A DNA stretch of 64,000 nt, taken from IMG/VR virus record IMGVR_UViG_3300045988_143923; one strand, 5' to 3'. Within the stretch, counting starts at the first letter, position 1. Each line of letters begins with the position of its first letter. Under the pieces are notes generated by a model that ran no database searches, was not told the DNA's origin, and saw nothing but the letters and a program-made list of their open reading frames with translations. The translations under genes and the position numbers were made by a program. Of this stretch, positions 3,306 to 49,432 are shown piece by piece. This DNA is from a virus.

Positions 3306-4403
3306 TCAGGCCCAGGAATCAAAGGAGTCTTTGAGATAATAAGAAGATTCATTGCAAACGGCTACAAACTTTCCTGCACCATAAGTAACAGGAACTAATT
3401 TTGTCTGAGCTCCACCTGGATAAGTGCCACTTCTCCAATTAACACCATCTATCGAGTAAGCAAAAAGCCCTTGGGTAAATGACGTTGCTATAAATTTTCC
3501 ATTGCCATAGCAAACAGAACCCCAGCCTGAGGATGTTGGCATCTCAGTCAGAGTCCAGGAGATACCATCCTCAGAATAAGCTGCAGTATTGCTATCTTTC
3601 TCAACAGCTACAAATTTCCCATTACCGTAACAAACAGAGGCCCAGTTTTTATTTTTTGTCAAATGAGCCTCTCTAAAACCGTGTTTGGTACTTTCATTAC
3701 TATAGATAGCACCACATTCAGGTGAACCATCGGCAACAGCTACTAGTGTGCCTTTACCATAAGCAAGTGTCCAATTATCAGCATAGAATAGCAAACCTTC
3801 CGGTTCCCAATTGATACCATCCTCGGAATAAGCTGGATCGCAATCCTCACTTCCACCCTGTCCAATTACTTCGAAACCTTTATCGTAATAGCAAACAGAA
3901 TTCCAGTTTCCCATTATAGGTCCAAGACGAGGAAAAGTCCAATTAATACCATCAAGAGAATAAGCTACTGCACCATTTCTAGCTACAGCTATAAACTTAT
4001 CCGCGCCGTAGCAAACAGAAGTCCAGTTCTCCTTAATTGTAGCATTAGACTTAGACCAATTAATGCCATCAGTAGAATAAACAGGAGTATCAAGACCAAC
4101 AGCAACGAACTTACCCGCTCCATAACAAATAGAAGACCACGATGTATTAACTGGCATTGTTCCGGTAATCCATTCAGGTTTCTCGATGGGAATTAATGTA
4201 CCAGTGACCTTCTCGCCATTGACATAAAGAGTCTTACCGGACAGAATTTTGTCGGCAGTGGCAGTGGCATCGGAGGTATCCACACCAGTCTGGATTGCTA
4301 AAATTCGATTAGCAAAATCCGAAGCCTTGATTGGATCAGTAGATCCGTCCTTATCACGAATGGCATCTGCGATAGATTTAAGATTGGTTTCTTGAATATT
4401 CAA
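3306..4403 (-). CDS. tail fibre / receptor-binding protein with 7-bladed beta-propeller-like repeats
   Basis: 365 aa. Seven repeats of the W-x-S-V-C-Y-G-x-G-K-F-V-A-V ... A-Y-S-x-D-G-I-N-W type (Asp-box-like SxDGxxW). N-terminal module and C-terminal YLKDSFDSWA are shared with the neighbouring paralogue. Confidence 0.8.
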   Translation of the reverse strand: MNIQETNLKSIADAIRDKDGSTDPIKASDFANRILAIQTGVDTSDATATADKILSGKTLYVNGEKVTGTLIPIEKPEWITGTMPVNTSWSSICYGAGKFVAVGLDTPVYSTDGINWSKSNATIKENWTSVCYGADKFIAVARNGAVAYSLDGINWTFPRLGPIMGNWNSVCYYDKGFEVIGQGGSEDCDPAYSEDGINWEPEGLLFYADNWTLAYGKGTLVAVADGSPECGAIYSNESTKHGFREAHLTKNKNWASVCYGNGKFVAVEKDSNTAAYSEDGISWTLTEMPTSSGWGSVCYGNGKFIATSFTQGLFAYSIDGVNWRSGTYPGGAQTKLVPVTYGAGKFVAVCNESSYYLKDSFDSWA

Positions 4404-4420
4404 AATATCATACCTCCTCT

Positions 4421-5515
4421 CTATGCCCAGGAATCAAAGGAATCTTTGAGGTAAGCAGCGACTTTACTCCTGAAAACTATAGCTACAAACTTACCCGTAC
4501 CATAGCAAACATGTGTCGAGGCCGCGCTAGTCGGCAGCGTAGTCTGAATCTGAGTCCAGTTGATACCATCGGTAGAGTAAGCTGCGATATTGTTACTACT
4601 AGACATGGCTACAAACTTGCCATTGCCATAGCATACCCATTGCCAGGCTGCAGAAATCGGCATCGTAGCCTGAGTCCAGTTGATACCATCGGTAGAGTAA
4701 GCTGCAATATTACCGGTCCTAGACACGGCTACAAACTTACCATTGCCATAACAAACCGAGAGCCAGGTTTTATTAGCCGGCAACGTAGTCAGAGTCCAGT
4801 TGATGCCGTCCTTCGAGTAAGCGGCGCGATCATCAGAACCACCAACAGCCACAAACTTACCCGCACCATAGCAAACTGAATACCACCAAACCTCATCCGA
4901 AATCGTAGTCTTAGTCCAGTTAATGCCATCAGTAGAATAAGCAGCGACACCCTCTACACCACTAGCTATCGCTACAAACTTACCTGCACCATAACAAACC
5001 GAGCCCCAGTCGTAACGACTAGCAGGCATTGTAGTCTGAGTCCAGTTGATACCATCGGTAGAGTAAGCAGCGACATTATCACTGTTAGCCACAGCCACAA
5101 ACTTACCCGCACCATAGCAAACCGAGTTTCCGATTCCACTAGCAGGCATTGTAGTCTGAGTCCAGTTGATGCCATCGGTAGAATAAGCAGCGATATTGCT
5201 GCTATAATTCACAGCCACAAACTTACCCGCACCATAGCAAACCGAAAACCAGCTCTCGCTAGCAGGCATGTCGGAACTTTCCCATTTCGGTTTTTCAATA
5301 GGAACTAGAGTACCCGTTACCTTCTGGTTATTCGCATAACCGGTCAGTCCTGAGAGAATGTCTTTGGCTCCTGCAGTGGCATCAGATGTGTCGATGCCGG
5401 TCTCAATGGTGCTGATTTTACTCGCAAATTCCGATGCTTTAATAGTTCCGGTTTCCCCAGTCTTAGCTTTGATGGCGTCGGCGATAGCTTTAAGATTAGT
5501 CTCCTGAACGCTCAT
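4421..5515 (-). CDS. tail fibre / receptor-binding protein paralogue (7 propeller blades)
   Basis: Start refined to MSVQETNL (ATG 5513-5515), which overlaps the upstream TGA as TGATG. Seven very regular 40-aa blades (SVCYGAGKFVAV...AAYSTDGINWTQTTMPAS). Confidence 0.8.
   Translation of the reverse strand: MSVQETNLKAIADAIKAKTGETGTIKASEFASKISTIETGIDTSDATAGAKDILSGLTGYANNQKVTGTLVPIEKPKWESSDMPASESWFSVCYGAGKFVAVNYSSNIAAYSTDGINWTQTTMPASGIGNSVCYGAGKFVAVANSDNVAAYSTDGINWTQTTMPASRYDWGSVCYGAGKFVAIASGVEGVAAYSTDGINWTKTTISDEVWWYSVCYGAGKFVAVGGSDDRAAYSKDGINWTLTTLPANKTWLSVCYGNGKFVAVSRTGNIAAYSTDGINWTQATMPISAAWQWVCYGNGKFVAMSSSNNIAAYSTDGINWTQIQTTLPTSAASTHVCYGTGKFVAIVFRSKVAAYLKDSFDSWA
4450..5260 (-). repeat. tandem ~120-nt coding repeats (propeller blades)
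   Basis: A near-identical DNA string, gtccagttgataccatcggtagagtaagc, recurs at about 4554, 4674, 5040 and 5160, with diverged copies between them. Confidence 0.7.
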
Positions 5516-5784
5516 CAATAGCTCGCCTCCCAAGTGTCTTGAATAGCCACCTGAATAGCAGAATCGGTATACGCCTTAGCATTAGCTAAAGATTGCGCGG
5601 TTAAACCTTTCACATCTGCCGCATTCGGAATCTGTGTGTTCTTGCCATCAGCGTTGCCGGTATACAGCCGCTTTTCATTGGTTACATACGCAACCTTGCC
5701 CTCTTCCAGCGATGGCAAACCGGATTTAGGGCCAGTATAATCGACGGTGCTTTCGCCCGTCGGAAATGCCGAAATAATAGGCAT
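5515..5784 (-). CDS. short tail-fibre-associated protein
   Basis: 89 aa. The segment EGKVAYVTNEKRLYTGNADGKNTQI resembles the N-terminal motif of phage fibre / Mtd-type proteins. Translationally coupled to the fibre gene. Confidence 0.55.
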   Translation of the reverse strand: MPIISAFPTGESTVDYTGPKSGLPSLEEGKVAYVTNEKRLYTGNADGKNTQIPNAADVKGLTAQSLANAKAYTDSAIQVAIQDTWEASY

Positions 5785-6201: not shown

Positions 6202-6216
6202 CTCACACCGCCTTTC

Positions 6217-7434
6217 TTACAAAACCACATAATCTAAGTTGTCGAGCGTCATCGTGTCTATGTCAGCCAGAGACCTATCATCAACCTCAGACAGCAGCCG
6301 ATATCTCCGAATCAGCTCCTCAATCGCACAGCCAAGTACCATAACAGAAGCTAGCTCAGGAGAAGAACCAGTCAACGCCGCGTCACACGCAGCCGCGATA
6401 ACACTATCGGAATCAGCGTGTTCTCTCTTTTCGAGCAGAAAATGGCCGGCGGCCGTATTCTCTATCTGGACAGCATTTTCAAAGCCGCCGAGCGGAAAGT
6501 GTTCCTCAAGCTCGCCGAGTTTCGCTGTGATCTCCATGCCGGAGCTGCCGCCGGAGAAATAGTTGTAGCACAGGTTGGTAACTGCCGCAGAAACTACGGT
6601 TTGAGTCTCTGCACCCACGGCATATGTCAGTAAAAACTGAACCGGAAACGCGACCGGAATTACGGAAGTCTCAGTCTGCAGAAAACTATTCTTTGCTATT
6701 TCTACAACCGTAGAACCAAGAGCAAAAGAAGAAGCGCCGCCGCCCAGAGAGTAAAGAATCTCCACCTGCAGCGGTGCCGCGTAAGGCTCCATCGCTGTCA
6801 TGCCGCCATCAGAGAAAAGCTGATAGCATAAACTTTGCAATTTTGCCTGAAAATGCAATGCGTTCTCGGCTTTGTCGAATTTGTGGCTCCAAGTCTGCTG
6901 AACTTCTGCGGAGAAGGGAAGTGCGCCGGTTGCTTTTTCAAGCGTCTGCTTAGTCTCCTGCGCGGTGGTCTGAATCTCCAAACCATTCTCCGTGCCGGAG
7001 AGCTTTTTGCGTACTTCCATATTCAGCTTGTCTACTGCCAGAACAACAACGTCATCAGCCTGTTCGAAGGTCTCAGCGTGCAGTTCGGTCGGCTCGCTGT
7101 GAATCGTGAGCGCGTTAGGGAAGGAGCTCAGAATCTTGTGAGAGGTGAGCTCCGCCTTGCTGTCAATAACAAGCGCGTTCATGCCGCGTTCCATAACGTG
7201 TCGCAGAATCTGGTCAATCTCCGAATGGATAACCACGCCTTCATCTACAGAGAAAAGGCCGGTCAGATAAGTATCGACCACATGGCTGTCTACGATGATT
7301 GCGTCATATACCTCGCCGACATATTCACGGAAGGGGATAGAGGATATCGTCAGGTCACATTCGGTGTAACGAGACTTGGTGACCAGATCAATGTCGATCA
7401 GCCGGTCACGAAGATAGAGTTTATAATCCTTCAT
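6217..7434 (-). CDS. baseplate/tail-fibre module protein, unknown function
   Basis: 405-aa ORF within the contiguous minus-strand tail operon. No motif recognised. Confidence 0.55.
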   Translation of the reverse strand: MKDYKLYLRDRLIDIDLVTKSRYTECDLTISSIPFREYVGEVYDAIIVDSHVVDTYLTGLFSVDEGVVIHSEIDQILRHVMERGMNALVIDSKAELTSHKILSSFPNALTIHSEPTELHAETFEQADDVVVLAVDKLNMEVRKKLSGTENGLEIQTTAQETKQTLEKATGALPFSAEVQQTWSHKFDKAENALHFQAKLQSLCYQLFSDGGMTAMEPYAAPLQVEILYSLGGGASSFALGSTVVEIAKNSFLQTETSVIPVAFPVQFLLTYAVGAETQTVVSAAVTNLCYNYFSGGSSGMEITAKLGELEEHFPLGGFENAVQIENTAAGHFLLEKREHADSDSVIAAACDAALTGSSPELASVMVLGCAIEELIRRYRLLSEVDDRSLADIDTMTLDNLDYVVL

Positions 7435-7455
7435 GTTTGTCCCCTTATCTTAAAC

Positions 7456-7866
7456 TTAGGCGGTCGGGTTCTGAACGGACAGCTTGAGGTAATTCTCCTT
7501 GATGGTCATGATGGTAGCCGTCTCGACCGTTCTCGGCGTAGTCAGTGCGCCGTACATCAGCAGATTGCCCGCGCCGATCTCGTTGGAATCATATACAACA
7601 AAGTGGGTAACAGTGCCCCAGCCGTTGGTAGACTCGTTGAAATTGATTGCCTGCTGGTTGGTTACCAGACCGTCAACCGGCTCACCCAGACTGTTCAGCT
7701 CAACACGAGCGTAGCCTGCTGCAGTCTCCGGTTCCGTTACATTGCCGCCGGTCTCATTGGGCTCGGTCTTGCTCAGGCCGATGTAATACTTCGTCGGAAT
7801 AGCCGGCGTCTCCTTGGAACGAAATACATTGCCCGCTACAAGGTTCAGAAAATACTTAGTATTCAT
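7456..7866 (-). CDS. tail-collar-fibre-like protein
   Basis: 136 aa. The pattern YIGLSKTEP...GYARVEL...INFNEST..WGTVTHFVVYDS..GAGNLLMYGAL resembles the N-terminal tail-collar fibre domain of the P2 gpH type. Confidence 0.5.
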   Translation of the reverse strand: MNTKYFLNLVAGNVFRSKETPAIPTKYYIGLSKTEPNETGGNVTEPETAAGYARVELNSLGEPVDGLVTNQQAINFNESTNGWGTVTHFVVYDSNEIGAGNLLMYGALTTPRTVETATIMTIKENYLKLSVQNPTA

Positions 7867-7878
7867 GCCTTTTCTCCT

Positions 7879-8259
7879 TTACTTGATGATTGGTTTGTCA
7901 ATATTACGCGTCACATACATGATGCCCTGATAAGGAATGTCCACATCTCCCTCGGAGCCTTTGATAGTGACCTGATAAATAAATTTCCCCGCCAGATTGA
8001 CCGTATCAGATGGTTCGAGTTCGACGCGAAGAATGTTGTCTGTCGCGTCGGTTTTGCTCTCGATGATATCCATCGTTTTGGTAATCAGCGGGGAAGATTT
8101 ATTCAGATACTCAGCTACAGAAAAGTAGCCGGTGCAGCCTCTCATGCTGAGCGGGCGGCCGTTGTCCTCAAAGTAGGTATGGAACGCCAACTGCTGTGTT
8201 GCACCGCCAACAAATGTGACGGTCGGCAGCTGATAGGGCGATTGGTCGCAAAGCGACAT
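7879..8259 (-). CDS. Ig-like baseplate protein (BppU-N-like)
   Basis: 126-aa beta-rich ORF in the baseplate module. The assignment rests on pattern similarity only. Confidence 0.45.
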   Translation of the reverse strand: MSLCDQSPYQLPTVTFVGGATQQLAFHTYFEDNGRPLSMRGCTGYFSVAEYLNKSSPLITKTMDIIESKTDATDNILRVELEPSDTVNLAGKFIYQVTIKGSEGDVDIPYQGIMYVTRNIDKPIIK

Positions 8260-13602: not shown

Positions 13603-16600
13603 TTATTTTTTGATTTTGAGAACTTCGATAATGTCGTTGACCATGCGGCGAGATACAGCTTCATGCTGCTTAACCGTGTCTCCGTCCGCACCCTTGATGA
13701 TGGTGTCACCGAAGGTAACGTTCGTGACGTTTTCACGCGGGATCGTGACAACTTCACGGTTCACGCCGGAAACAGGCATCTGAGCGGCCTTGGACAGGTC
13801 AGGCAGGGCAGAAGCGGACAAACCGCTGGTAATGGCGGACATTACCTTGAGAATGGAGTCGAGCGACTGCTGTTTGGGCTTGTCGAGCACGATTTCGCCC
13901 TTTTGCAGAATCGCCATCATCTCGTCTTGACGCAGGGTAGAGGCATCGCCGACAACGCCGCCGGTGTGGTATATACCGAGGTACTTATCATAGATGTTAT
14001 TGCCATACTTGTCATACCAAACACCAGTGTGACCATCATAGTGAACACCGAGATCGTACTGGCTGTTGAGTTGACCAGCATAGTCGGCATTCTTTTGGTT
14101 GAGCGCTTTCTTCTGCTCCACCGTCATGTTGGCAGACCAAGTATCACTGTTCTTCTTCATCTTCGCCACGATTCGAGCGATCCCAGCCGCATCTGCATCC
14201 CCAGTGCCGTATTTATTCGAATCGCCAATGATATTGGAGTTGGAACCGTTGGAAGAAGAATTGGAACCGTTTTCACCAAGACGATCATAGACTTCGAGGT
14301 AAGTAGCATTGTACTTCTCCATAGCCTTTTGGGCGTCTTGCCATGCTTGCGTAACCTTGGCATTGATGTCCGAACCCGCACGAGTGTTATATTCAATTAA
14401 ATCATCGTAAAGTGTTGCCCAACCATCTTGTATTCTCTTTCGAGCCATTTGGTAGAGTTTTTCCTCCGATGAAATTGAATCCTGCAGTTTCTTAATCTCG
14501 GCGTCCTTTTCCTTCTCGTAAGCCTCCTGCATCTTATCAAGATTATCGGTCTGACGGTCATAGGCTTCATTTGCCTGCGTCTCGCCAAGTTCTTTTTGGA
14601 GATCGGCGAGTTGTTCTTCAAGGTCTTTACGCTTTGCGATTGACTCGCGGCTGTCATCCAGAGACAGAGCGTTAATCTTCTCTTGGAGCTTTGCCATTTC
14701 CTTGACCTTGTCGGCTACCTCGTCCTGATAGTCGGCTTCGTCCTTGCTCAGTTGCAGGCTTTCCTTCTTCTTATCGATGATCTCGCTATACTTATCCTTC
14801 AGCTCTTCCAGAGCGTCGACCTGCTGGTCGATTTCGTCTCGAATCATATCCTCGACGTACTTGAACAGAGCGTCAACGCTATCCTTGGTGTCGTCGAAGT
14901 CGATTCCGACGCCGGCTTTTACGTTAGCCAGAACGCTGCGGTACGCATCTACATTCTTAACAGCCTGCGCATAGCCTTCCTCGGTGAGGTCAAGCATAGC
15001 GAGCTGTGCGTAAACGGAACCCCACTGAACCTCGGTCAGGTCGGCCGTTGCGTTCAGCAGATTATTCAGAGAAACAACGTCGTTCTCCTGCAGAGCCATA
15101 CGCAGACGCTCCACATAAGCGGAGGCGCTTTCCAAAGCCATCTGCTCAGTCTTAGCTTTGATAACGCGGTTGATGGCTTCCTCGTTGATGGTCAGAAGAC
15201 CATTCTCGTCTTTGAGGTATCCCATGTATTCGACGCCAAGTTTGGAGATTTCTTGGAAGGTATCGACGGAGATAAAACCACCATTTGTCGAGTATTCCTC
15301 GGCAGCCTTCTTGAACGTGTCGAGAACGTCCTGAATCGTATCAACAGAGTCGCTTGCCGCATCAACAATATCAGAGAGATAGTCGATAACTTTCTGCTTA
15401 ACATCCTTAACAGCGTCTTCGTATTCCCACCACTGATCTGAGAGGTCGGCCACTTCGTCGCTAAGGTCGGAATATCCCATGCCACGGTAATACTGCGCTT
15501 CCTTGTGCAGGTTCTTCTGAGCTTCGCGATAATGGTCAATGATGCCGTTGAGCGTAGACTCAATTGCGTCGCCATCGATAGACGAGAAGATAGTATCAAC
15601 AGTCTTGGTTTCGAAACTGTCTGCAATGCCGCTGAAGATGCCGGCCAGAGGATTGCCCTTCTTGGCGACACCGTTCAGAATATTCTGCGACAGCTTTGCC
15701 GAATTGAAAATCTTACGCTGAGCACGAGTGAAAGAGCGTTCGAGCTTATCAGTATCGAGCAGACGGTCAAGGCTTCGCTCGGCCAGTTTGATAGCATTTT
15801 CATGTTCCGACGTGATCTTGTCGTACATGTCCTTCATCGTGTCGATGATGCTGTCATGTGCCTCCCAGTATTTCTTCTGCATAGACATAATGTATTCAGA
15901 AGAATCTTTCTGCCCTTGAGCACGGTAACGCTCGGCGGCTTTATGGGTTTCATCCTGAATCTGCTTATAATAAGCGACAATCTTCATCGGGTCGCCACGC
16001 TGCTTTTCGACGAGGTATATCTTGTGCTCAATCTGGTCGATGATATCTTCGACTTCTTCTTTGATTTTGTCGAGAGCTTCCTTTGCAGAATCTGAAAGCT
16101 GAGAGGTATCAGCAGAGACTTTGACGGTGGCGTTACTGGATTTGCCAGATGAACTGGAAGGCACCCAGTTCCGGTAATGACCATTGGTGGCAAAGCTAAG
16201 ATTGCTCAATGCACCGTTAGCGTTCGCGCCGCCCCACACACCGCCAGATGCTTGATGGGGAATACCGCCGTGCATCAGACCAGCAGTCAGATTAGCAGGA
16301 ACAATCGCGTCACCGGGTTTAGTGTTGATGACTTCCATTCCATGCAAGCCAACAAATTTACTATGCTTGCCGTCCCGAGAAATCCACTGCTCAGGGCCAA
16401 GTTCGCCGACAAGTGTTTTGCCGCCTACAGCGTTGCCGCCAGATGCGTACTGAGTCATTTTGCCAACGTGTCCGGTGAAGTCTTGCTTTTTATTCCCCTC
16501 ACGGCGACTATGAATGTCAGCCTTGGTCTGAGCTTCGGTTCTGGTTGTCTGGACTGTGTTTACGCGAATGGTCACACTCTTATCGTGAATACCACTCATT

Positions 16601-19600
16601 AACCCAACTGTGTATAGAATCTTACTGTTGGCTTCCGAAGTATTTACATTGACATGGCGTTCTTTTTCGATAGGTTTAAGTGCTTCATCTATCGCATTGA
16701 CTTTCCCGGCAGCTTCCACAGTATTCCCTTCAATAGTAAGCTGTACTGGATTTCCCGCCTCATCTTGGATTTGCGCCATCGTACTCAATACAATTTGCGC
16801 CTGTTCTTGCGTAACACCAAGACTGCTTGCGAAAGCATCCAAGTTGCTCACATTGATAGACCAACCACCATCATCAAGACGTTCAACACTAGCAGCAGCT
16901 TCGCCCGAAGCGGTTTTCACGCTTTCAAGAGATGCTTTCAGGCCATCAAAAGTCGGAGTCTCTCCGCCAATGCTTGCCTTGAATTTATTCATGGCACTTA
17001 CAAGCGTGTCGAGCTCATCTACAGATATTTCTTTAACATCAATATCCGTTCCTTCAGTAAGAGACTCGAGTGCGATTTTCGCACTTTCACTCATGTGCTC
17101 CCATGCTTTTGTGGACGACCGATCAGCCGCAGAAACAGATTGTTTGATACGATAGGTGTCATCGTTCAGCGTCTGGATACTTGATGTAACCGAACTAACT
17201 GTTTTCGGAACATAATCCGAATATGTGGAGATTAAATCAAGTGATTGTTGCAGAGAAGCTGCCGAAATTCCAAAAGCGTCGGCCAGAGCGACAACATCAT
17301 GTTGTGCGACTTGGATAGAACCAGTATCCCAATCCACATCCATGAGTCCATCGACAATCTTTTTCTTGTCAGCACTGAGCTCGTTATACTTCTTATGAAG
17401 TGTATTAAACGTTCCGGTTAGGTCTTGACCGACATTATCCTCGTCTGTACCTGTTAAGAAGAGGCCCTCATTGTCCTTAACCCACTGCTTCGCTTCTTGC
17501 AGGCTAACAACCTTGCCGATGAGAAGCTCCATTTGATTGCGAGCTTCCTCTGTGTTAATTTGCCCTTTATTTACTGATTCTGCAAAATCATCGTAGATTG
17601 AAACCATACTCTCGTGATCTTGTACATGGTCGGTAATCCCTTCCATAGAGGTTTCATAATTTGCAAGAGCATCAGAAACCGTATTAAGAGAGTCAGTTTG
17701 TTTGCTCAGGGAATTTGAAATCGCATCCAGAGCTTCAGGCAAAGCGCCAACTTGAGCAAGAGCGGCCAACCGAGCGGCAAATTCCGAAGCATGATCGCCA
17801 GTATCAACCAGAGCGGAATTGAGAGCGGAAAGTTGATTCTTTGACAATTTTTCGAGATTGAAGTCCTTGAGAAGCTCGTCTACGGAAGAACCTTCAATAT
17901 CTGAGCCGCTTAGAGCCTCTTCGAAATTACTCCGGATGGTCTCTCGCATTTGATACATGTCTGACTGGAATTGTTTTAATCCGAAAGCCTCAGACAAATC
18001 AATTGCGTTCATTTCTTCAGGAGTTAATCGTTTCGATAATTCTGCGCGAACAGCCTCCATCACTGTTGACATTTTTGCAACATATTTATCGTAAGGCATC
18101 GAGTCCTGTTCTTCTTGAATCTTATAATAATCAGAAATAGCCTTTTTCCCTGCTTCGGTGTTTTTAACAACTTGAAGCATCGCATTCGCATATCTTAACG
18201 GCGCGTCGGGATTATTTGCGTCATAAAGCGCGTCAGAACTAATGCTGTCAGCGTATTGTGATAAAAATGTTTTCTGCTGGTCATCTAATTCGTAATAGAG
18301 TTTATTCGCCTCAAGAGACGCTTGCATCATCTGCTTGACCTCGGAGCTACTTGCATCTACACTCTCAGAAGCAGAATGCCAAGCATTAGCTAAACTTTCG
18401 CCATCTGCCGATAAATCGCCTGTCATTCCACGCATTTGATTCAATTGACCGAGAATATTATCAAAATTCTTTCCAAGAGCTTCGGAATTATCGCGAATAT
18501 AATCAAGCCAAGTAACACTTTTAGAGCCGTTGGTTTCTTTGTTGATTTTATCAGCGTACTCATCGTAAGTCATACCAATAGTGTCGGAAATTAACTTATT
18601 GAAATTCTTAATATCTCGGCCGCCGTTTTTAGACAAAGCAGTTTGAACCCGAGATAAATAATTAAAGATGTCATTATCGACACTTTTTACGCCTTCCTGT
18701 GCTGTTTTATATTGTTCTTGGAAGTCTTTATAGGCAGCTTCATAATTCTTCTTATGACCGTCATTCTCTGATGATCCACCATATACGGCATCTCGCGCTT
18801 CCTGTCTCTGCTGCTTCTCGAGTAATGCGATTGTTTCCTCGATAGCAGAATTTTTATCCAAGATAGCTTGTTGCTCATCGTTATAACCCTCCACTAATGA
18901 TGGATTGATCCCAACAAGTTGGGAAACAATATCTTGGTATTCTTGATATTCATCGGCAGCCAGAGAAATATTTTTGCCGTTGTCTGTTACGCCCTTGGAC
19001 AATTCTGCGAATCGATCTTTGAGATTTTCGACTGACGTAATATTGCCCTCGATAGATGATTTGGCGCTGTCGTAGTTGCTCAATGCATTTTGGGTTATTT
19101 CGGCTGCTTCTTGTGCGGACATCACTGTTTTATCAATAGCACTCATAAGACCGGTTAGTATAGTCTGAACAGCCATAAATGCTACCATCGACACGGCCAT
19201 ACTTGCAATAGCAGACCCGATCCCCTTAAAAGTCGATGCAATCTTGGCTCCGAGTGTTCCTACCTTTTCTTGCTTTGCAGTGAAGTTATCGATTTGTCCG
19301 TTAACAACATCACACTCATTCCCGACGGTGTCAAGGGATTTAGCAAACTCACGACTTTGAATACTTGCGCCAGAAAGAGCTTTTTCAAAATCAGCACCTC
19401 TAAGTTTTTGCTTCATCTGAGCGTAGTTTTTCAGAATTTCATTTTGTTCCTGCCAATAGTCGTGGTTTTTGGTGTTATAATTTTTCAGCCAACTGAATAA
19501 ACCACTTCCGCCAAAGATGTTTTCTCCATATTCTCCCTTTCCTCCGATAATGCTTTTCCCGTTCATTGACAGAAGCAGGGAACCTACAGGAGCGATAAGC

Positions 19601-19865
19601 CCCGGAAGAACGCCAAGTTTATCAATCAGAGTGTTGAAGAACCCGAGAATGCCAGAACCGGCGCCGATAGTTCCTTTCACAAGACCAGAATCAAGAATAG
19701 AAGTGCTCAAAGACTGGAATGTGGCTTGGAACTGTTGCATTTTACCCTCGATAGAATCAAGATGTTTTGCGTTCTCGGCATCGGCTGAGCCAGTTGCGTT
19801 TTTAGTCGACTCGATGACGTCCTCAACGGTCGACCAGTTCTGGATGAGCGCTGAAGTTGTATTCG
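13603..19865 (-). CDS. tape measure protein, exon 7
   Basis: The ORF 13603..19869 begins mid-domain (ANTTSALIQNW...HLDSIEGK). It is long and helical and has the C-terminal YHTGGVVG motif. The acceptor was placed after G19866. Confidence 0.8.
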
Positions 19866-20274
19866 CCATTCTCTTCGTTTTGTTTACAAGGGTTGCAAAG
19901 CCTTATGTTGTATCTACAACCTCATGCTTTCGCATGAGACCCGACTATTTCTTCACCCTTAAAACTAAGGGGCATACCTTTTCCATTTAAGGGATTTTCA
20001 CCCACGCCTTTGCTTGCGCCGTACTCCTGTTGCTCATAAAGAGCCGAGGGATAGTCTGTGAACCTTCTCCGTGTCATGAGACCGATAGGAGCTTGGCTGC
20101 ATGATCACCCATTGTTACTGCACTTAGGCTTTTGACCGTATGCAATCCGCACGTTGTTTCTGCTTTCGCACCGTCATAAACTGCTTTCGCGCTCATTGTG
20201 GTGTGCGGCTTTAGGGGGTACCTGCAATTAAATATGTTGTTATTGCACATTGCTGTACAACCGGGCAAGTGAAT
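19866..20274 (-). ncRNA. group I-type intron 6 (family A)
   Basis: mRNA-sense core CACAGACUA ... GAAGAAAUAGUCGGGUC (19938-19958). P1 is CGGGU|A...UGCCCG with a U.G pair. P9-like hairpin CUCAUGC-GAAA-GCAUGAG. Ends in G. Boundaries are within about 10 nt. Confidence 0.7.
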
Positions 20275-20309
20275 ACCCGAAATCTTTTCGAGCAAAGCTC
20301 AGTATATTC
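20275..20309 (-). CDS. tape measure protein, micro-exon 6 (NILSFARKDFG)
   Basis: A 35-nt segment that keeps the frame between exons 5 and 7 when homologous splice positions are used in introns 5 and 6. An alternative register is possible. Confidence 0.45.
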
Positions 20310-20705
20310 CACGGGGGCACAACTCCCGTGAGCTGTCTAAAACAGCATCTCTGCGTTTCCACAGAAGTTTAGATCATTTCTTAATCGTGCCTTTCGGCGA
20401 CGACCACACCGTTTCCATTTAAGGGGTTCTCACCCACGCCTTTGTTTGCGCCGTACTTCTGTTGCTGCTTACGCAGCCCTACATGGGAATGATCGTTTGA
20501 CACACCTCTATTCGAGGCTTCGCGACCAAGCTACCATTGTCACTGCACTTAGGCTTTTGACCGTATGCAATCCTTACCGTTGTTTTACTTTCGTTCCCGT
20601 CATGCCAGCTTATTTCATCCGCATTGTGGTGGTAAGGCTTTAGGTTTTACTGGTTTTAGATGTGTTATTTACGCACATTTCTGTACGCACAGGCAATATT
20701 GGTCT
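20310..20705 (-). ncRNA. group I-type intron 5 (family A, paralogue of intron 6)
   Basis: Clearly alignable with intron 6 over most of its length. Core CGAUCA ... UAAGAAAUGAUCUAAAC (20367-20386). The P1 helix is CAGGC|A...UGCCUG, with C-G where U.G is expected. Confidence 0.65.
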
Positions 20706-20944
20706 GCCTGATCTACGTCACTAAGTTGATCATAAACGCCGGCAATTTCGCGCATAATCTGCGTTGTACTCTTAAATTGAGTGCCTGCCTCGTCGGCCAT
20801 GATGTCAACTTTGTCGTGGGTTAAAGTTTTGATGGTTTCGCGAAGCTCGCTCACAGAGTTTGCCATACCATCCGTTTCGATTCCGGCCTCTTCAGCATCA
20901 GCTTTAGCGGCACGGAGGTACATACTAAGAGTTTTAGCCCATGT
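20706..20944 (-). CDS. tape measure protein, exon 5
   Basis: TWAKTLSMYLRAAKADAEEAGIETDGMANS...QLSDVDQA, the central TMP core, lying inside ORF 20669..20980. Confidence 0.7.
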
Positions 20945-21132
20945 CAATCTGTTACTTTCGGCGGGTCGCCTACTGACCACTTTTGTGGCGGCAAGGCCGT
21001 TAAACCTTGCTCTCGCGTTTCGTTGTTAGATTATAGCGCGAGTTCGGACTGTATCTTCACCCCAGAGCGGGGGAATGGCGAAGCCCCGCTTGTTACCAAG
21101 CGGGGCTTTACAGTCTCTACGGATATTAAAAT

Positions 21133-21660
21133 TTAAGTTATTGGAATGCTGACCGGTTCATCGAAAGAATATAGATCATGATCATTATCCATATAATATA
21201 CTAAATTTGCACTAGTTATATTATCTCGATCATCCCAATGTTCATTGTTACTATCTATGCTCAAAAATCCATCAAATGTTTGATCTGGGGCTAATAAGCC
21301 CGTATGCGTAAAACCTTCGGAGTAAACAATATTCCCGTTTGAATCCAATAAATCTGCACCAATAAGCGGAGATTTCAAAGCAGATCCAGAAATATTTTTT
21401 ATTTTGAAGTAAAAATACATTACAGATTCGCTCTCGTAATTTTCGCATTTTTTAGTTTGAAATGTAACTTCCAAAGGTATATCCACAGGACTAGTTTCAG
21501 GCTTAGCATCAGATTCATCTATTACCGTATATGTTGTAGCTGGAGATTCATCTTGAGCAGGCTCAGCTTTCTCAACGGATTCCTTCCCGCAACCGCAAAA
21601 GCTAAGCGTAGTTATAATAGCCAACAATATAAGGTGGCGTTTTCTTTTCATATTTCTCAC
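21133..21660 (-). CDS. putative lipoprotein encoded inside intron 4
   Basis: 175 aa. Signal peptide MRNMKRKRHLILLAIITTLSFCGC with a lipobox-like LSFCGC, followed by a beta-rich Ig-like domain. Markedly AT-rich. RBS AAAGGGTGAG. Confidence 0.75.
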   Translation of the reverse strand: MRNMKRKRHLILLAIITTLSFCGCGKESVEKAEPAQDESPATTYTVIDESDAKPETSPVDIPLEVTFQTKKCENYESESVMYFYFKIKNISGSALKSPLIGADLLDSNGNIVYSEGFTHTGLLAPDQTFDGFLSIDSNNEHWDDRDNITSANLVYYMDNDHDLYSFDEPVSIPIT

Positions 21661-21673
21661 CCTTTCAACTTTA

Positions 21674-21701
21674 ATTATACATTAAAAGAAGAAAAAGTAA
21701 A
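21674..21701 (-). promoter_or_regulatory. candidate SigA promoter for the intron-borne lipoprotein gene
   Basis: Minus-sense TTTACT, 16 nt, TATAAT, ending about 25 nt upstream of the ATG. Confidence 0.45.
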
Positions 21702-21803
21702 TCTTAAATTTTAATCTTTCCTCGGTCTGAACCGTCTCCGGCCTTTAACCGATATAGCCATTTGCTTGCTCGCATATTACTATGCGGCTGGGCGCATGGA
21801 TTC

Positions 21804-21825
21804 ACCCACTGTATCAGGATCTTGT
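21804..21825 (-). CDS. tape measure protein, micro-exon 4 (QDPDTVG)
   Basis: A 22-nt segment that completes the Val codon and then encodes QDPDTVG, the conserved TMP core motif expected between ...TAANEV and GT.AKT. Confidence 0.6.
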
Positions 21826-22108
21826 CGTTTCTGTTACTTGTTAGCGCTGATATACCACTAATCTGACCGCAAAGCGGCGGCAAGGTCTTTCGGCCTTACT
21901 CTCACGTTTCCTTTCATTATTGCGTGAGTCCGGACTGTATATTACACCCTTCCCAGAGGAGTGGGGTGGATTGGTTCAGCTCTGGTGTTACCATCAGAAC
22001 CCCGCAGTCTCTACGGATATTGCTACCCACGGTCTCTGCTGTCGCCAGCCTTTGACCGTTTTACCAATCTGCTTGCGAACGTATTACTACGCCGCGTGGC
22101 AAAGATCT
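21826..22108 (-). ncRNA. group I-type intron 3 (family B)
   Basis: P1 is GUGGU|...GCCAC with a U.G pair. Core GAGACUG ... UAAUAUACAGUCCGGACUC (21926-21949). 3' end AGUAACAGAAACG. Confidence 0.7.
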
Positions 22109-22214
22109 ACCACTTCGTTTGCTGCTGTTACGAGGCCCAAACTCTCATCGAGAGAGTTGCCGCCTGCGTACAGAGCTGCTGCTGATCTTTTAAGAGCTTC
22201 GCCAAGCCCTTCTG
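22109..22214 (-). CDS. tape measure protein, exon 3
   Basis: Encodes (S)EGLGEALKRSAAALYAGGNSLDESLGLVTAANEV(V), a canonical TMP core. It is not part of any ORF in the track. Confidence 0.7.
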
Positions 22215-22556
22215 CGTACCTTTAGCGCGGGTCGTTACTCCGCACCGACATAAAGTCCTCCGTCTTTCAACGGAGCCGAGATCATATCTTCACCCCATAG
22301 GGTGCCTACCACTTTCAGAGCACTCGCCCCTACTTTGATCGTTGAACCTTCCTCTGTTCGAGGCTTGGCTGCTGATTATCCATTGTCACGGCGTTTAGGG
22401 TTTAACCTTGCGCCATCTCTCATTTTTTTTCTGCTTTCGCCGCATTCACGTTTGCGCCTGTTCGGCACTGCGTTGTAGCATGAGAGCTTTAGGACGTCCC
22501 AGCAATTCAATAGGTGATTTTGCGAACACATTTCTGTGAACGAAGTCCAATGATTA
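22215..22556 (-). ncRNA. group I-type intron 2 (family A)
   Basis: P1 is AAGUU|U...GGACUU. Core CGAUCA ... GAAGAUAUGAUCUCGGCUC (22273-22295). It shares blocks with introns 5 and 6 (ACAGAAAUGUG, GUGACAAUGG, CAGCCAAGC). Confidence 0.7.
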
Positions 22557-22579
22557 AACTTATCGCGTAGTTGTTTCCG
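22557..22579 (-). CDS. tape measure protein, micro-exon 2 (GNNYAIS)
   Basis: A 23-nt segment. Joining it gives ...DRFNEV-GNNYAIS-SEGLGEAL..., which matches the usual TMP core. Confidence 0.6.
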
Positions 22580-22856
22580 CTGTTTGTTACTTTTTTCCTT
22601 AAAAACGAAAAGAACAGGTCATTTCTGCCTGTTTCTGCAATTTCATTATTCGATTATATTTGCAGACCCGACTATATCTTCACCTCCAAAAAAGGAGGGG
22701 ATGGCATGACTCTGCACGTTACCGTGCAAAATCGGTTAGTCTGTACGGATTCTTGTGGTCAAACACAAGTCTTTCCTCGGTATTGCCCATCTCTGGGTGT
22801 TCACCGATATAGCCATCTTTTACGCTGCACATCGCTGTGCAGGGAGGCCGGTCAAA
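22580..22856 (-). ncRNA. group I-type intron 1 (family B-like)
   Basis: P1 is GAGGU|...GCCUC. P2 CUGCAC/GUGCAG. P3 AUCGGU/ACCGAU. P7 CAGACUA/UAGUC. P8 UGCACG-GUAA-CGUGCA. Core GAAGAUAUAGUCGGGUC (22663-22687). 3' end AGUAACAAACAG. Confidence 0.75.
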
Positions 22857-24532
22857 ACCTCATTGAAACGGTCTACGACGCTTCCAACATCATCAGCAGC
22901 AAGATGGAAGCCCTGCAGAGTAGAAACAAGCGACTGTGCCGCGTCCTCAATGTTCGTGTATTCCGACACGTTCATATATTTGGTCGCCCAGTCGCCAAGA
23001 TTGGAGGCATCCTCCAAATTAAATCCGAGTCGGCTAAACTCAGATGTTGCTCCAATTACATCCGTAATCGAAGCGCCGAGGCTCTTCGCGCGTTCACCAG
23101 CGCTGTCAAGATAATTAGCGTAATCCTGACTTGAACCTTCCGAAACCTTTTTCAGGTCGGTCATCGCCGTGTCAACGTCGATAACATTCTGGAGCGTCTG
23201 CTGTAAGCCATTCTGCAATAAGTGCAGTCCTGCCATCGCAATAGCCGTGTTAAAGTGATCCTTGAACAGGCGAGTCAGCTTCTGCCCGACAGTTTCAGAC
23301 GTAAACCCGAGTTCTTCCATACTGGAGCGAACAGATGCGAGGTCTCTTTGAAGTCCCTCAACGCTATCACCTTCGCCCGGGTTTCTCGCACGGCTCATAA
23401 TGTTCCGCAGTTCGCCTTGAAAATAAGAACCCGCCGCTTTTGGGTTATTTTTAAGTGTTTCGCTGGCCTGCCGATAAATGTTCGCCAAATGTTCCTGCGA
23501 TCTCTGAGAACGAACGGTCGCAGTTTGCTTAGCATTAAACAAATCTGCCTGTGCGCTCGCATCAGCCCACGCGGAACGGAGTCCATTCAGGCCCTGCTCC
23601 AGCTCATAAGTACCGGCCGCCGCATTCTGGAAAACAGATTTTGCATTCTCGAATGCCGTCCAATCATAATTCTGCAGCGTCCCTTTATCTTTTAGAGCCT
23701 GAAGCTGCGTTATATATTTCTGGCCGGATGCCAAAACATTATCAGTAACCGACTGAGAGTTCTGTCTGGACACTGTAGTCCACATCTTCTTGATGTTTTT
23801 CTCAAGCGCGTACTTCTCTGGCGTAAAATCCGCCATGCTCTTGTACTGTTTGAGCATCTTATCAAGGCTGGCTACATTCTCCTCACCAAAAAGGTTACCC
23901 TTCTTGAGCTTTCCAAACTTAGAGCTAATCTGCTGAACATCCAACATAGATCGCTCGGCCTTTTCTGCAGCCTTCAAATTGTTGCGAGAGAACGCAATAT
24001 TGGTCGCCTGCTGTGCCTCTTTCAGAGCGTTAACGCTTTCTACAGTTCCCTTGGTCGTTGACTCAAACTTCTTCATCGCGGTTTCAGCCGCCGAGATAGC
24101 CTTTGAATCGATAGGACTCGGCATGTTCTTCAGATACGACATCGTCTGTCTCAAGCCGGTCGCCTGACGCTCCATTGTACGCAACTGCCGTTCCGCAGCC
24201 TTCTCTGCGTCTGTTTTGCCCGATGTGGAGCTTTTAGACGAGCTGCTCTTTGTGGTAGAGGAGCGGGTCGAAGCCGCAGAAGACTTAGCTTTGCCGGAGC
24301 TGTTTGTTCCAGTTCCGGCCGCCGAGATAGCCTTTTTAATCTGAGCAGTGATATTGGCAGTATCAACGTTTACTTTCAGCTTGGTTGAGGAAGCGTTTTT
24401 GATTGCTGAACTGATACTTTTCTGCAGAGCTGCAGCATCAACTTGAATTGGAAAATCCTTGTAGTTACTGAGGGCGCTTTCGAGTTTGTCAAAATTAGGG
24501 ATAAGTTCGACAGTAACGCCTAAATCAGCCAT
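22857..24532 (-). CDS. tape measure protein, exon 1
   Basis: ORF 22820..24532 runs MADLGVTVEL...SVVDRFNEV and then reads into the intron (LTGLPAQRCAA stop). RBS AAGGAAGGTGA. Confidence 0.8.
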
Positions 24533-31050: not shown

Positions 31051-31126
31051 TGGCACGAGTGCTTCGAGTCGAACGAAGATCGGAGAATTTTGGAGATTCC
31101 CAGTTTCCCAATTAGCCTACACTCGC
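31051..31126 (-). tRNA. tRNA-Trp (anticodon CCA)
   Basis: Manual cloverleaf. Acceptor GCGAGUG/CACUCGU, anticodon stem GGAAU/AUUCU, loop CUCCAAA, T-arm CUUCG-UUCGACU-CGAAG, discriminator G, encoded CCA. Confidence 0.8.
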
Positions 31127-31129
31127 ATG

Positions 31130-31222
31130 TGGCAGAGATGGTTGGATTCGAACCAACGAGCGAGAGCGTTACCTCTCTTGGCGGAGTCAAATTCCGCTGC
31201 CTTACCGCTTGGCCACACCTCT
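31130..31222 (-). tRNA. class II-shaped tRNA with apparent UUG anticodon (isotype ambiguous)
   Basis: Manual fold. Acceptor AGAGGUG/CAUCUCU, 3-bp D stem GCC/GGC, anticodon stem GCGGA/UCCGC with loop AUUUGAC, a roughly 23-nt variable arm (GAGAG-GUAACG-CUCUC), T-arm GUUGG-UUCGAAU-CCAAC, discriminator G73, encoded CCA. Confidence 0.65.
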
Positions 31223-41004: not shown

Positions 41005-41256
41005 CTCACCTTTTCTTTCTGGTTTTTTATCCAGAAACTTACGGTTTATTTCCCGTAAGATGAGCATATCTTTTCATCTACGTGAGATGGCGCGGACTCG
41101 TGCGAGGATTATAGTTCGCCAAATTGGCGAGATCACCTCGTATGCGTTGCCTGTGACTTCGTCTTTACTCGAAGCCTTCCAGTCGGATTCCCGTCTCAGG
41201 GTTCCCGTTTTCTTCCGCGCTACACTCCAACTGTCGCCAGAAGGAGGGGCGTCGCC
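41005..41256 (-). other. 252-nt intervening sequence in terL (candidate intron) containing an in-frame TGA
   Basis: It sits between ...DYVVVDTNG and VGISIYD. Its translation is Arg-rich and not protein-like, and it contains TGA at 41074-41076. Strong helices are present (GCGCGGA/UCCGCGC, UCGCCAA/UUGGCGA, GGCUUCG/CGAAGUC, CUUACGG/CCGUAAG). Boundaries are approximate. Confidence 0.5.
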
Positions 41257-42432
41257 ACCATTGGTATCAACTACGACATAATCCACATCCAAATCATCAT
41301 AAAGCTGACGGATACGGATCGCTTGGTCTTGACCATGACCACCATCAATGGTCTCCATGTAACATTCATTGCGGATATACTGTCCGGAGTTGTTAGGCAG
41401 GAGCTGCAACAGAGTGATCGCTGTTGCGTCGTTCTTCGCGCCGCCGGAGGTTGCGATATCGCAGCTCAGCAGGCGAATTTCTCCGGGTTCCTTTGTTGGG
41501 TACTTCAGCTTGGGATCGCCGAGTGCCGCATACATAGGCCGCGGATAGACTGGGCGCGTGATGCGCCGGACAGAGTTTAGGTCTGTAAAAGAGAAGAATG
41601 CACGTTCGGACTCGCCATAAAATTCTGAGCACATTTCCATGCTCCAGCTTATCTCGTTGAAATCATCTTCCTGCATCTCTTCTCGAATCTGTTCCATCGG
41701 GTAATATCCCGCAGAAACAGGAAGTTGATAAGGGAATCCGCACACGATATACGGTTCGCTCTTGATCATCGACTTAAAATAAGCCTTAAATTTCGCCCAG
41801 CTGTAATGCCATTTGAAGTATGCCGAGCTGATATAGGTCTCCGTGTTACGTTCCTTTGGATAGTTCTTGTATTTCGGGAAACTGTAAAAGCCCGGGGTAC
41901 GCTCGCCAGCTTTGAACTTTCTGAGCACCTTATCAATAATATCCTTCGGAATCTGCACGAATTCGTCCGCAATCATCCAGTTTGTACGCGCAGAACGTGA
42001 AGAATCACGCGCTGTTACAACTTTGACCACGGAGCCATTTTTGAATTTGATATACGCCTCGCTAGGCGTCACTTTGTAATCTTCAATCTCGTTCGTTAGA
42101 TTGGGCGAGTCAGGCATGAACTTTTCGACTATCTTGTTCAATAGGTTCGTTGACTGACTTCGGACGCCGGCTGCGACAGTGACTTCCAAACCGGGATACA
42201 AAATACACCGAACACAAATGGCCGCCGCCACGATCATGGACTTACCCATGCCGCGAGAAGCGATAATCATCACATAGGTGTTCAGACAGATTAAGTCCAG
42301 CAGGATGCACTGGAACATCGCCAGCCATTTCATGCCGAGATAATCCTGAGCAAAACGATGTGGATTAGCTCGATAGAAACTAACCCACTTGCACATACCT
42401 CGTTCAATTTTTTCAGCTTTGGTGGCATCCAT
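41257..42432 (-). CDS. terL: terminase large subunit, ATPase and N-terminal nuclease part (5' exon)
   Basis: Walker A ASRGMGKS, Walker B WMIADEF, nuclease motif LLSCDIATSGGAKNDATAI. Confidence 0.8.
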
Positions 42433-49410: not shown

Positions 49411-49432
49411 AATATTTGCACTTCCTTGAGAA

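Follow-up and report, generated by a model that had tools for sequence, protein, structure and literature searches.

A predicted lipoprotein gene and its putative promoter, lodged in the P6 loop of a tape measure group I intron of an SPbeta-like phage

Results

Intron 4 of the tape measure gene

The viral DNA analysed here (IMG/VR record IMGVR_UViG_3300045988_143923, 64,000 nucleotides (nt), further called the window) contains a tape measure protein (TMP) gene with six group I introns crowded into about 3 kb (19876..22856, minus strand), and intron 4 of this series holds an open reading frame (ORF) for a predicted lipoprotein. The flanking pieces of the TMP gene are ORFs of 570 amino acids (aa) (22820..24532) and 2088 aa (13603..19869), all genes in this region lie on the minus strand, and the roughly 3 kb between both pieces is devoid of long ORFs except for one of 175 aa (21133..21660). 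The host of these introns is an SPbeta-like phage of gut Firmicutes.

Intron 4 measures 859 nt (20945..21803, minus strand); its 5' end at 21803 and its terminal G at 20945 were derived from exon restoration, the U.G pair of P1 and the consensus structure. The 5' ribozyme half (21716..21803) comprises P1, P2, P3, P4, P5, P4' and the 5' strand of P6 and ends in GACCGAGGAAAG, and the 3' ribozyme half (20945..21124) comprises the 3' strand of P6, P7, a P7.1-like hairpin, P3', P8, P7', P9, P9.1, P9.2 and the terminal G. Between both halves, an AT-rich cassette of 591 nt (21125..21715) occupies the terminal loop of P6 and holds a closing stem, a promoter, a ribosome-binding site (RBS) and the lipoprotein ORF, all likewise on the minus strand. 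By alignment, introns 4, 3 and 1 form one family with the common blocks CUAUAUCGG...ACCGAGGAAAG...AUCCGUAGAGACUG...GAAGAUACAGUC...GUAACAG, and the sole large difference of intron 4 from both others is the block inserted between GACCGAGGAAAG and AUAUCCGUAGAGACUG, the latter being (AU)AUCCGUAGAGACUG; this insertion point corresponds to the P6 terminal loop by analogy with the Rfam alignment of intron 1. Intron 3 (21826..22108, minus strand, 283 nt), placed by alignment and consensus structure, is an ORF-less paralogue with a short P6 loop. The original prediction, which had been made from the letters of the window, had described intron 4 as a paralogue of this ORF-less intron with one large insertion of about this size, and the alignment agrees.

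The 5' splice site is predicted after GGGU (21804), of which the U pairs with a G in the P1 hairpin GGGUG/CGCCC, and the intron ends in ...GUAACAGAUUG (20945), i.e. in ...CAGAUUG. Joining the exons across intron 4 yields ...NEVVQDPDTVG/TWAKTLSMYLRAAK... (the slash marks the junction), with the junction motif ...QDPDTVG/TWAKTLSMYLR. In tblastn searches, the spliced junction aligns gap-free and in a single piece with intron-less TMPs, namely that of MT837120, a human-gut phage scaffold (63% identity), and, again ungapped, that of Brevibacillus phage Sundance, an SPbeta-like phage with an annotated TMP (43% identity), which read across the junction QDADTVGTTLKSLSMYLR and QDPKIVGTALKTVSMRLR, respectively. 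The intron ends put forward earlier are thus consistent with the P1 U.G pair, the terminal G and the restored TMP motif.

A consensus structure was computed with RNAalifold from 8 members of the intron family from which the ORFs had been cut out. It recovers P1 (with the U.G pair in 7/7), P2, P3, P4, P5, P6, the P7.1-like hairpin, P8, P9, P9.1 and P9.2, and 43 of the 68 predicted pairs carry compensatory double changes. The P7 strands (GACUG/CAGUC), which form a pseudoknot and fall outside the RNAalifold model, are visible in the sequence of intron 4, and P6 (21721-21719 / 21121-21123) is also present in the unconstrained minimum free energy (MFE) fold of the whole 859-nt intron. The Rfam group I model RF00028 gave no match on intron 4 or intron 3, neither at the gathering score nor at E<=10. 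It scored 32.7 bits on intron 1 (22866-22648, E=8.8e-6), which lies under the gathering score of 50, and in the same gene it recognised intron 2 (22566-22258, 69 bits) and intron 6 (20284-19921, 61 bits) above that score. The miss on intron 4 is probably a matter of sensitivity, explained by the 591-nt insert and by subgroup divergence, so that the group I identity of intron 4 rests on paralogy, covariation and exon restoration. On these sequence grounds, we regard intron 4 as a real group I intron of the self-splicing type in the TMP gene.

The cassette and its predicted product

With a GC content of 0.33, where the intron core reaches 0.54 and the exon downstream 0.48, the insert is clearly more AT-rich than its surroundings, as had been noted before. 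It is closed by a stem, P6a, of which the 5' arm (AUUAAAAUUUAAG, 21703..21715) and the 3' arm (CUUAAAUUUUAAU, 21125..21137, which includes the ORF stop codon at 21133-21135) were recognised in both the MFE fold of the whole intron and a duplex fold. The arms (21715-21703 / 21125-21137) form 13 base pairs with a duplex energy of -13.9 kcal/mol, and the stem is retained in the unconstrained fold of the 859-nt intron at exactly the position where the original prediction had placed an AU-rich stem extruding the insert. Among the cargo variants described below, the arms vary in sequence yet remain complementary.

The ORF runs in the sense orientation of the TMP gene and stops within the 3' arm of the stem. 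It is indeed listed as 21133..21660 (175 aa) with a GTG start, but the ATG at 21651 is the likelier start, giving an ORF of 172 aa plus stop (21133..21651). Residues 1-21 (21589..21651) constitute a predicted signal peptide with lipobox, MKRKRHLILLAIITTLSFCG followed by C21. Hereto, a PS51257-type regular expression was used (basic residues at the N-terminus, a hydrophobic segment and the lipobox [LIVMFWSTAG](2)-[LIVMFYSTAGCQ]-[AGS]-C, its Cys being residue 15-35), which matches the window protein at MKRKRHLILLAIITTLSFCGC (Cys21) as well as 7 other alleles, with L010 and L009 as near-misses, and Cys21 is invariant across 10 family members. The signal peptide and lipobox proposed earlier are thereby retained, and the protein is predicted to be secreted and lipid-anchored.

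In the AlphaFold2 (AF2) model, residues 1-47 are disordered and residues 55-172 have a predicted local distance difference test (pLDDT) score >90 and form a seven-strand beta-sandwich, annotated here as an immunoglobulin-like (Ig-like) domain of residues 59-172 (21136..21477), in agreement with the beta-rich Ig-like domain that had been proposed. Foldseek against PDB returned generic Ig-like sandwiches (ApaG, Ig-like modules of GH2 enzymes and IrmA; E ~1e-4 to 1e-5, TM-scores 0.35-0.47), and against BFVD uncharacterised, DUF4352, DUF5067 and 'lipoprotein' phage proteins. Neither a nuclease signature nor a curated family was found for the window protein in Pfam, PHROGs, NCBIfam, PADLOC, a PDB profile search or Foldseek (PDB, BFVD), so that the statement that LAGLIDADG, GIY-YIG and HNH features are missing stands at the level of both sequence families and folds. 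The PDB profile search gave matches at the level of the signal peptide only, and the Pfam, NCBIfam, PADLOC and PDB matches of at least 7 family members were sub-threshold and confined to the signal peptide, among them NF047972 (E=0.011, 15.7 bits versus a cut-off of 31). The matches of the FxLYD and DUF3426 models stayed below the curated cut-offs (NF038353, E=0.087, 12.7 versus 23 bits; PF11906, E=0.092, 13.3 versus 27.7 bits), which suggests at most a distant kinship of the beta-sandwich with these families. When seven family members were compared with PADLOC-DB, no family matched the window protein at E<=1 and the sole match overall (P0011, E=0.059) is meaningless. The beta-sandwich also occurs in tandem in giant proteins, with 14 copies in P0012 (3698 aa) and 8 in P0016 (1196 aa), and given these tandem copies it may be a general surface-display module.

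Expression signals

A predicted promoter of the sigma-70/sigma-A type, with TTTACT (21701-21696) and TATAAT (21679-21674) separated by a 16-nt spacer and 10/12 consensus matches, is found at 21674..21701 (minus strand); it is the best-scoring promoter-like site in 4.9 kb and has a predicted transcription start around 21667. The ATG at 21651 is preceded by AAAGGGTGAG, which contains the RBS GAAAGGGTGAG (21656..21665, read from the sequence, 5 nt before the ATG), and an AGGAG- or GGTG-type RBS stands at the equivalent place in other cargo variants. Every allele checked keeps the RBS, the lipobox or near-lipobox, the closing stem and a -10 box that reads TATAAT or TATATT and precedes the ATG by 16-28 nt. 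The -35 box is good in five alleles (TTTACT or TTTACA, spacer of 16-17 nt) and weak in three (TTCCAT), and three distinct modules of 5' untranslated region (UTR) and promoter are shuffled among the alleles. The promoter and RBS claimed for the ORF are thus present at the sequence level, and these signals are conserved in the cargo variants.

In SPbeta, late genes are transcribed by a polymerase of the YonO type. A 981-aa ORF of the window (45426..48371, minus strand) weakly matches PF05183 (RdRP; E=5.3e-5, 22.6 bits, cut-off 23.8), as would be anticipated for the YonO-type single-subunit RNA polymerases that SPbeta-like phages possess. If the late genes depend on such a polymerase, a sigma-A-type promoter would by analogy give expression by the host RNA polymerase, independent of late transcription.

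A lipoprotein family with interchangeable alleles

Homologues of the window protein, all of them lipoproteins, amounted to 7 proteins in a word-indexed search and to 19 representatives among 1.8 billion at E<1e-3; the distant relatives P0018, P0019 and P0021 are ordinary multi-domain lipoproteins. Nearly all members found in phages share one location: the orthologous intron, again at the QDPDxVG/TW site of the TMP gene and again in its P6 loop, on contigs of SPbeta-like phages. These contigs carry the YomN, YomU and YomV Pfam families, with PhoH, ClpP and a tyrosine recombinase upstream. A lipoprotein ORF at this site and in this intron was found in loci L001-8, L010, L013, L016-20, L025/27/56, L079 and L118. 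We distinguish the alleles A (window, L001-8 and L011/12), B (L010), C (L013), D (L016-18), E (L019/20), F (L025/27/56), G (L079) and H (L118), together with a ninth, A' (the L001-type, filed with A), that is 95% identical to the window allele. A search of metagenome contigs added one further locus, 100% identical, and megablast of the 3.1-kb region against the INPHARED phages gave no match. The survey of homologous introns that the original prediction had called for thus turned up a conserved ORF with nine alleles at the same insertion site, and does not bear out a random AT-rich expansion.

Comparing the window with L001, the beta-sandwich shows 5 synonymous and 1 nonsynonymous changes (omega 0.05) and the signal peptide plus linker 3 synonymous and 8 nonsynonymous ones; in distant pairs the synonymous sites are saturated, with pN around 0.2-0.4 and omega 0.13-0.33. 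Values of omega of about 0.05-0.33 in the domain indicate purifying selection, and hence that the ORF is a selected protein-coding gene.

The carrier is far more constant than its cargo. The 5' ribozyme half of the window is 100% identical to that of L001 and 97-99% identical to those of phages with other cargo alleles, and protein identities of the cargo fall to 95, 52, 30 and 26% while the intron core and flanking exons remain 97-100% identical. In L013 compared to L001, with flanks 99-99.6% and ribozyme 97-99% identical, the cargo is replaced by an unrelated-looking allele. Protein identities are used here for the diverged inserts; the global nucleotide identities (72-78%) are inflated by cheap gaps. 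Such a variable cargo in a constant carrier, together with the shuffled 5' UTR modules, indicates cassette replacement by recombination with the ribozyme halves serving as conserved flanks.

What the P6 slot holds elsewhere in the intron family

Scanning IMG/VR and GTDB genomes with a 25-base degenerate pattern of the intron core revealed 81 and 13 loci, respectively, the latter mostly in metagenome-assembled genomes of Clostridia. P6 inserts of 16-44 nt and of 147-165 nt hold no ORF, those of 528-594 nt hold lipoproteins and occur only at the intron-4 site, and those of 950-1528 nt hold Zn-finger-rich ORFs of 224-470 aa, several of which match Vsr (PD-(D/E)xK) or the homing-endonuclease-associated HNH_repeat. 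In other phages, the intron-4 site of the TMP gene is taken by an ORF-less intron (L069, L023/L043 and others) or by an intron with an ORF of 266-309 aa (L044, L096, L081 and L112); of the three of these ORFs scanned with Pfam, those of L044 (E=3.8e-6) and L096 are Vsr-like and that of L081 has no match. As the same site and slot are elsewhere empty or filled with a Vsr-like ORF, the description of the lipoprotein gene as standing in place of a homing endonuclease is accurate.

Two further contents of the slot were encountered. A 758-nt insert in L064 (intron at 7053..7900, plus strand) belongs to the same intron family and holds a 142-aa ORF matching PBECR3/PBECR2 (barnase, EndoU, colicin E5/D and RelE-like RNase; E=2.9e-16), which is another cargo other than a classical homing endonuclease. 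Inserts of 950-1156 nt without an intact sense ORF under genetic code 11 (L039, L040, L041, L042, L048, L078, L091, L036, L095 and others) represent either decaying endonuclease genes or phages with a recoded stop codon.

Copies in bacterial chromosomes

Two homologues, L014 and L009, lie outside phages in bacterial chromosomes. L014 is an intact lipoprotein ORF on a 14.9-kb contig with EF-G-like, GH115, GH43, ABC-transporter and LacI genes, and its promoter sequence is of the allele-II type, 81% identical over 96 nt to that of L013. Directly 3' of the ORF, AGAG-CTGTAAAGTCCCGCTTGATACCA matches the P7/P7.1 segment of the intron (AGAGACTGTAAAGCCCCGCTTGGTAACA) at 24/28 positions, and a degenerate P5-P4'-P6 (16/26) is recognisable on the 5' side. 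Since remnants of P5-P6 and P7-P7.1 flank it, the L014 copy came from the intron, i.e. from phage to host, and the bacterial copy as source of the cassette is rejected for this locus only. The insertion in L014 is bracketed by an imperfect direct repeat of about 65 bp (5497-5562 and 6172-6240) that spans the end of the GH43-like ORF and half its terminator.

In L009, a homologous cassette with the same ends as in the intron is flanked by a 5S rRNA gene on one side and a convergent sulfatase gene on the other; the homology starts and ends at the inverted-repeat ends of the cassette (ATTAAGATTTAAG...TTTTAATAT), and a canonical terminator is present where the intron has P7.1. Because of these inverted-repeat ends, shared by intron and L009, an independent transposon bounded by terminal inverted repeats was considered, but neither a target-site duplication nor a transposase was found. 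For this reason, and because L014 carries intron fragments, captured intron DNA is the simpler reading. The bacteria keep the gene and its promoter without the phage, which argues for a benefit to the cell.

Further features of the tape measure gene and the window

The remaining TMP introns of the window are, all on the minus strand, intron 1 (about 22856..22577), intron 2 (about 22566..22258, possibly longer) and introns 5 and 6 (within 20705..19876). Introns 3 and 4 are separated by a 22-nt exon 4 (ACAAGATCCTGATACAGTGGGT, 21804..21825), which is contiguous with its neighbouring exons in L016 and L118, both without intron 3; exon 5 (TWAKTLSMYLRAAK...SDVDQA) spans 20706..20944. L001-L008 possess introns 1-4 and have 25 nt in place of introns 5 and 6, and L016 and L118 are without introns 1-3 or intron 3. 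In L002 (13667..14707) and L004 (7018..8058), a 346-aa GIY-YIG ORF splits the TMP further downstream into pieces of 1435 and 743 aa, and the adjoining sequence resembles intron 2 of the window, which suggests a seventh, endonuclease-bearing TMP intron site in these phages.

A Pfam scan of 30 further window ORFs matched, apart from the YonO-like polymerase, a terminase (41074..42432), a Bro-N/ANT antirepressor (48655..49500) and a tyrosine recombinase within the structural-gene region. A tRNA-Trp(CCA) adjoins a tRNA-Gln(TTG) (31051..31222, minus strand), of which the 93-nt tRNA-Gln call is unusual. Downstream of the tail genes (3306..5533, minus strand), two adjacent paralogous ORFs of 365 and 370 aa with Zn_ribbon_2 and DUF6242 matches may be receptor-binding or tail-fibre-associated.

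Discussion

Our preferred explanation, held tentatively and at slightly under even confidence for the explanation as a whole, is that a moron-like gene in the P6 homing-endonuclease slot encodes a lipoprotein that excludes related phages. The co-varying stem closes the cassette, which would leave the ribozyme core free to fold and let splicing restore the essential TMP mRNA. The host RNA polymerase would transcribe the lipoprotein gene from the internal sigma-A-type promoter, starting around 21667, and the late TMP pre-mRNA or the excised intron would carry the gene as well. As this start lies 3' of P1 to the 5' strand of P6, the resulting mRNA cannot form the ribozyme and its translation would not compete with folding. 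The product, with a flexible linker and an Ig-like beta-sandwich, would sit on the outer face of the cytoplasmic membrane, where it could keep related phages from entering, either because it disturbs the injection of DNA mediated by the TMP or because it masks a receptor, and would thus be an exclusion protein in function, as are Ltp, Llp and Cor, though unrelated to them. Such a role in an arms race would explain the allele swaps in near-identical phages, the TMP linkage and the capture and retention by bacteria. By this arrangement, the intron may gain a cargo that selects against its loss and the gene an insertion site without polar or coding cost.

The superinfection-exclusion function is plausible and the least certain step of this explanation. 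We favour it because of the exclusive and ancient linkage to the TMP, the conflict-like turnover of alleles, the host capture and the precedent of Ltp.

Several observations weigh against this explanation. No sequence or fold similarity of the lipoprotein to Ltp, Cor, Llp or any PADLOC model was found. The cargo alleles differ without any change in the adjacent 200-300 nt of the TMP gene, so that there is no tight allele-for-allele co-evolution with the neighbouring TMP segment. In the 4.9-kb region, 3 promoter-like sites were found versus 5.7 expected, i.e. not above chance, and the credibility of the promoter at 21674..21701 therefore rests on its conservation among the cargo variants; moreover, no terminator is present 3' of the ORF inside intron 4. 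On a late pre-mRNA, ribosomes that reach the stop codon at 21133-21135 would open up P6a and P6, and translation of that transcript could therefore hit the closing stem and antagonise splicing. The original prediction had further supposed expression from a prophage, a claim that found no backing, since neither a repressor nor an integration module was seen among the 30 further window ORFs scanned with Pfam, and a profile search of 185,579 GTDB representative genomes yielded no lipoprotein-bearing prophage.

A wider formulation, which we consider possible but somewhat unlikely, is that the P6 loop is a dedicated exchange site for hypervariable, promoter-equipped lipoprotein genes, an 'intron-borne moron cassette'. 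The ribozyme halves would act as homology arms with which co-infecting phages swap exclusion alleles while the TMP frame stays untouched, splicing would erase the insertion from the mRNA, and the cassette could escape into bacterial chromosomes and be domesticated there as a defence gene.

Among the rival explanations, a generic Ig-like sandwich fits many surface functions, which counts against exclusion in particular, and the protein could instead serve lysogenic conversion or surface remodelling (adhesion, nutrient capture, or recognition by host immunity or other bacteria), with the P6 loop merely as a cost-free site. We rate this as rather unlikely, though it draws on the resemblance of the fold to the Ig-like modules of glycosidases, ApaG and IrmA, the tandem domains in P0012 and P0016 that are typical of adhesin-like surface proteins, the multi-domain nature of the distant relatives and the location of chromosomal copies among carbohydrate-utilisation genes. 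Against it speaks that the nine phage-borne alleles were all found at one TMP site and nowhere else in phage genomes, and that alleles replace each other quickly in otherwise near-identical phages, a pattern seen in conflict loci more than in accessories for metabolism or adhesion; neither point is decisive. The lipoprotein might also serve the lytic cycle of the phage itself. Translated late, with either the TMP pre-mRNA or the excised intron as its message and the internal promoter as incidental, it would act at the membrane, where it might keep newly made phages from injecting their DNA into lysing cells or debris, in the manner of T5 Llp, or help in tail or TMP steps or in lysis. The T5 llp gene is linked to the gene of the T5 receptor-binding protein, a sense-oriented ORF in a late structural gene is necessarily present on late transcripts, and the window shows no lysogeny module, all of which suits such a role. 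It is nevertheless improbable given that all variants, their 5' UTR modules otherwise differing, and the chromosomal copies too retain the -10 box, next to a -35 box that is good or weak, that bacterial chromosomes retain the gene without any phage, and that translation of the pre-mRNA would unwind P6a and P6.

It is very improbable that the ORF is functionless, i.e. an AT-rich expansion or decaying passenger left open by chance or by constraint at the RNA level. Peripheral loops of group I introns do tolerate insertions, and in the present family an intact ORF is missing from many P6 inserts of 950-1155 nt, but the selection analysis largely refutes this rival (omega 0.05-0.3 in the domain, synonymous saturation in distant pairs); nine intact alleles keep a lipobox or near-lipobox, the RBS and the -10 box, the fold is predicted with high confidence and intact copies are retained in bacterial chromosomes. 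Hardly any credence can be given to the idea that the protein, though devoid of a recognisable nuclease domain, is a new kind of maturase or factor for intron mobility, even though the ORF sits in exactly the slot of the endonuclease ORFs of sister introns: its signal peptide and lipobox would direct the protein out of the cytoplasm, away from DNA and RNA, nucleic-acid-binding or nuclease features were not found in the searches described above, ORF-less sister introns persist at the same site, and the chromosomal copies persist without a functional intron.

The arrangement can be compared with several known systems. In T4, the td intron is a phage group I intron with the homing-endonuclease ORF of I-TevI in a peripheral loop. 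Like this intron and the sister introns L044 and L096 (Vsr-like, Zn-finger), intron 4 is a group I intron in an essential phage gene with an ORF looped out of P6, in sense orientation and with its own expression signals, and L044 and L096 as well as L081 and L112 (with ORFs of similar size) even use the same TMP site and slot. Unlike in these introns, the cargo of the window is a predicted exported lipoprotein and is hypervariable in a conserved ribozyme; without nuclease features, it cannot drive homing. IStrons of Clostridioides, in which a group I intron is fused to an IS200/IS605 element with TnpA/TnpB cargo at the intron 3' end, are likewise bacterial group I introns with a cargo other than a classical homing endonuclease, but theirs is a mobility module, whereas that of intron 4 is non-mobility, predicted to be exported and located in the P6 loop. 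Fungal mitochondrial group I introns harbour rps3 and other host genes, and so also maintain a non-endonuclease protein gene; these cases are organellar, housekeeping, without an own promoter, not hypervariable and not viral.

Temperate phages carry morons, such as bor and lom of lambda and cor of phi80 and N15, which are recognised as autonomous transcription units with their own promoter, usually their own terminator, and a deviant composition. The window gene resembles them as a single accessory gene with a predicted sigma-70-type promoter and 33% GC versus 48-54% around it, in a late/tail region and scattered in phages and bacteria. Unlike morons, it is not placed between genes but embedded in an intron that itself interrupts a gene, is followed by no terminator within that intron and must keep an RNA closing stem. 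Small phage lipoproteins that block entry, T5 Llp and Cor, are encoded by genes linked to tail or receptor-binding genes, and in this linkage of a small lipoprotein gene to a tail gene they parallel the present case; they differ from the window protein in being anchored in the outer membrane of Gram-negative bacteria, and the single match in their direction was the sub-threshold one of NF047972 to the signal peptide. Ltp of Streptococcus thermophilus phage TP-J34 has helical repeat domains C-terminal to its lipobox, and ltp lies in the lysogeny module and not in the TMP gene. It shares with the window protein that it is a phage-encoded surface lipoprotein of a Gram-positive host with a thematic link to the TMP, but the window model is all-beta and no Ltp chain was among the PDB sequence or Foldseek matches. 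PMC3952083 calls Ltp a moron and, citing Bebeacua 2013, describes it as a lipoprotein targeting the TMP.

What is new here is the class of cargo and the cassette-like behaviour of an ORF-bearing group I intron. To our knowledge, ORFs of group I introns have been treated as homing endonucleases or maturases almost by definition. A current database of introns and homing endonuclease genes annotates only nuclease-like ORFs (PMC11835236), and a full-text literature search found no report of a group I intron, of phages or of bacteria, that codes for a lipoprotein or any other exported accessory protein.

Conclusions

A lipoprotein under selection throughout a clade, in the slot of an endonuclease, suggests that introns can be safe harbours for accessory or conflict genes in essential genes, that their cargo can be swapped among near-identical phages while the ribozyme stays constant, and that it can move on into bacterial chromosomes. 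Gene callers that are blind to introns will misread such loci as a split TMP and a hypothetical protein. The proteins form a candidate new family of exclusion or defence lipoproteins in gut Firmicutes and SPbeta-like phages and, if they act on TMP-mediated DNA entry, an exclusion determinant would here be physically coupled to the gene of its target.

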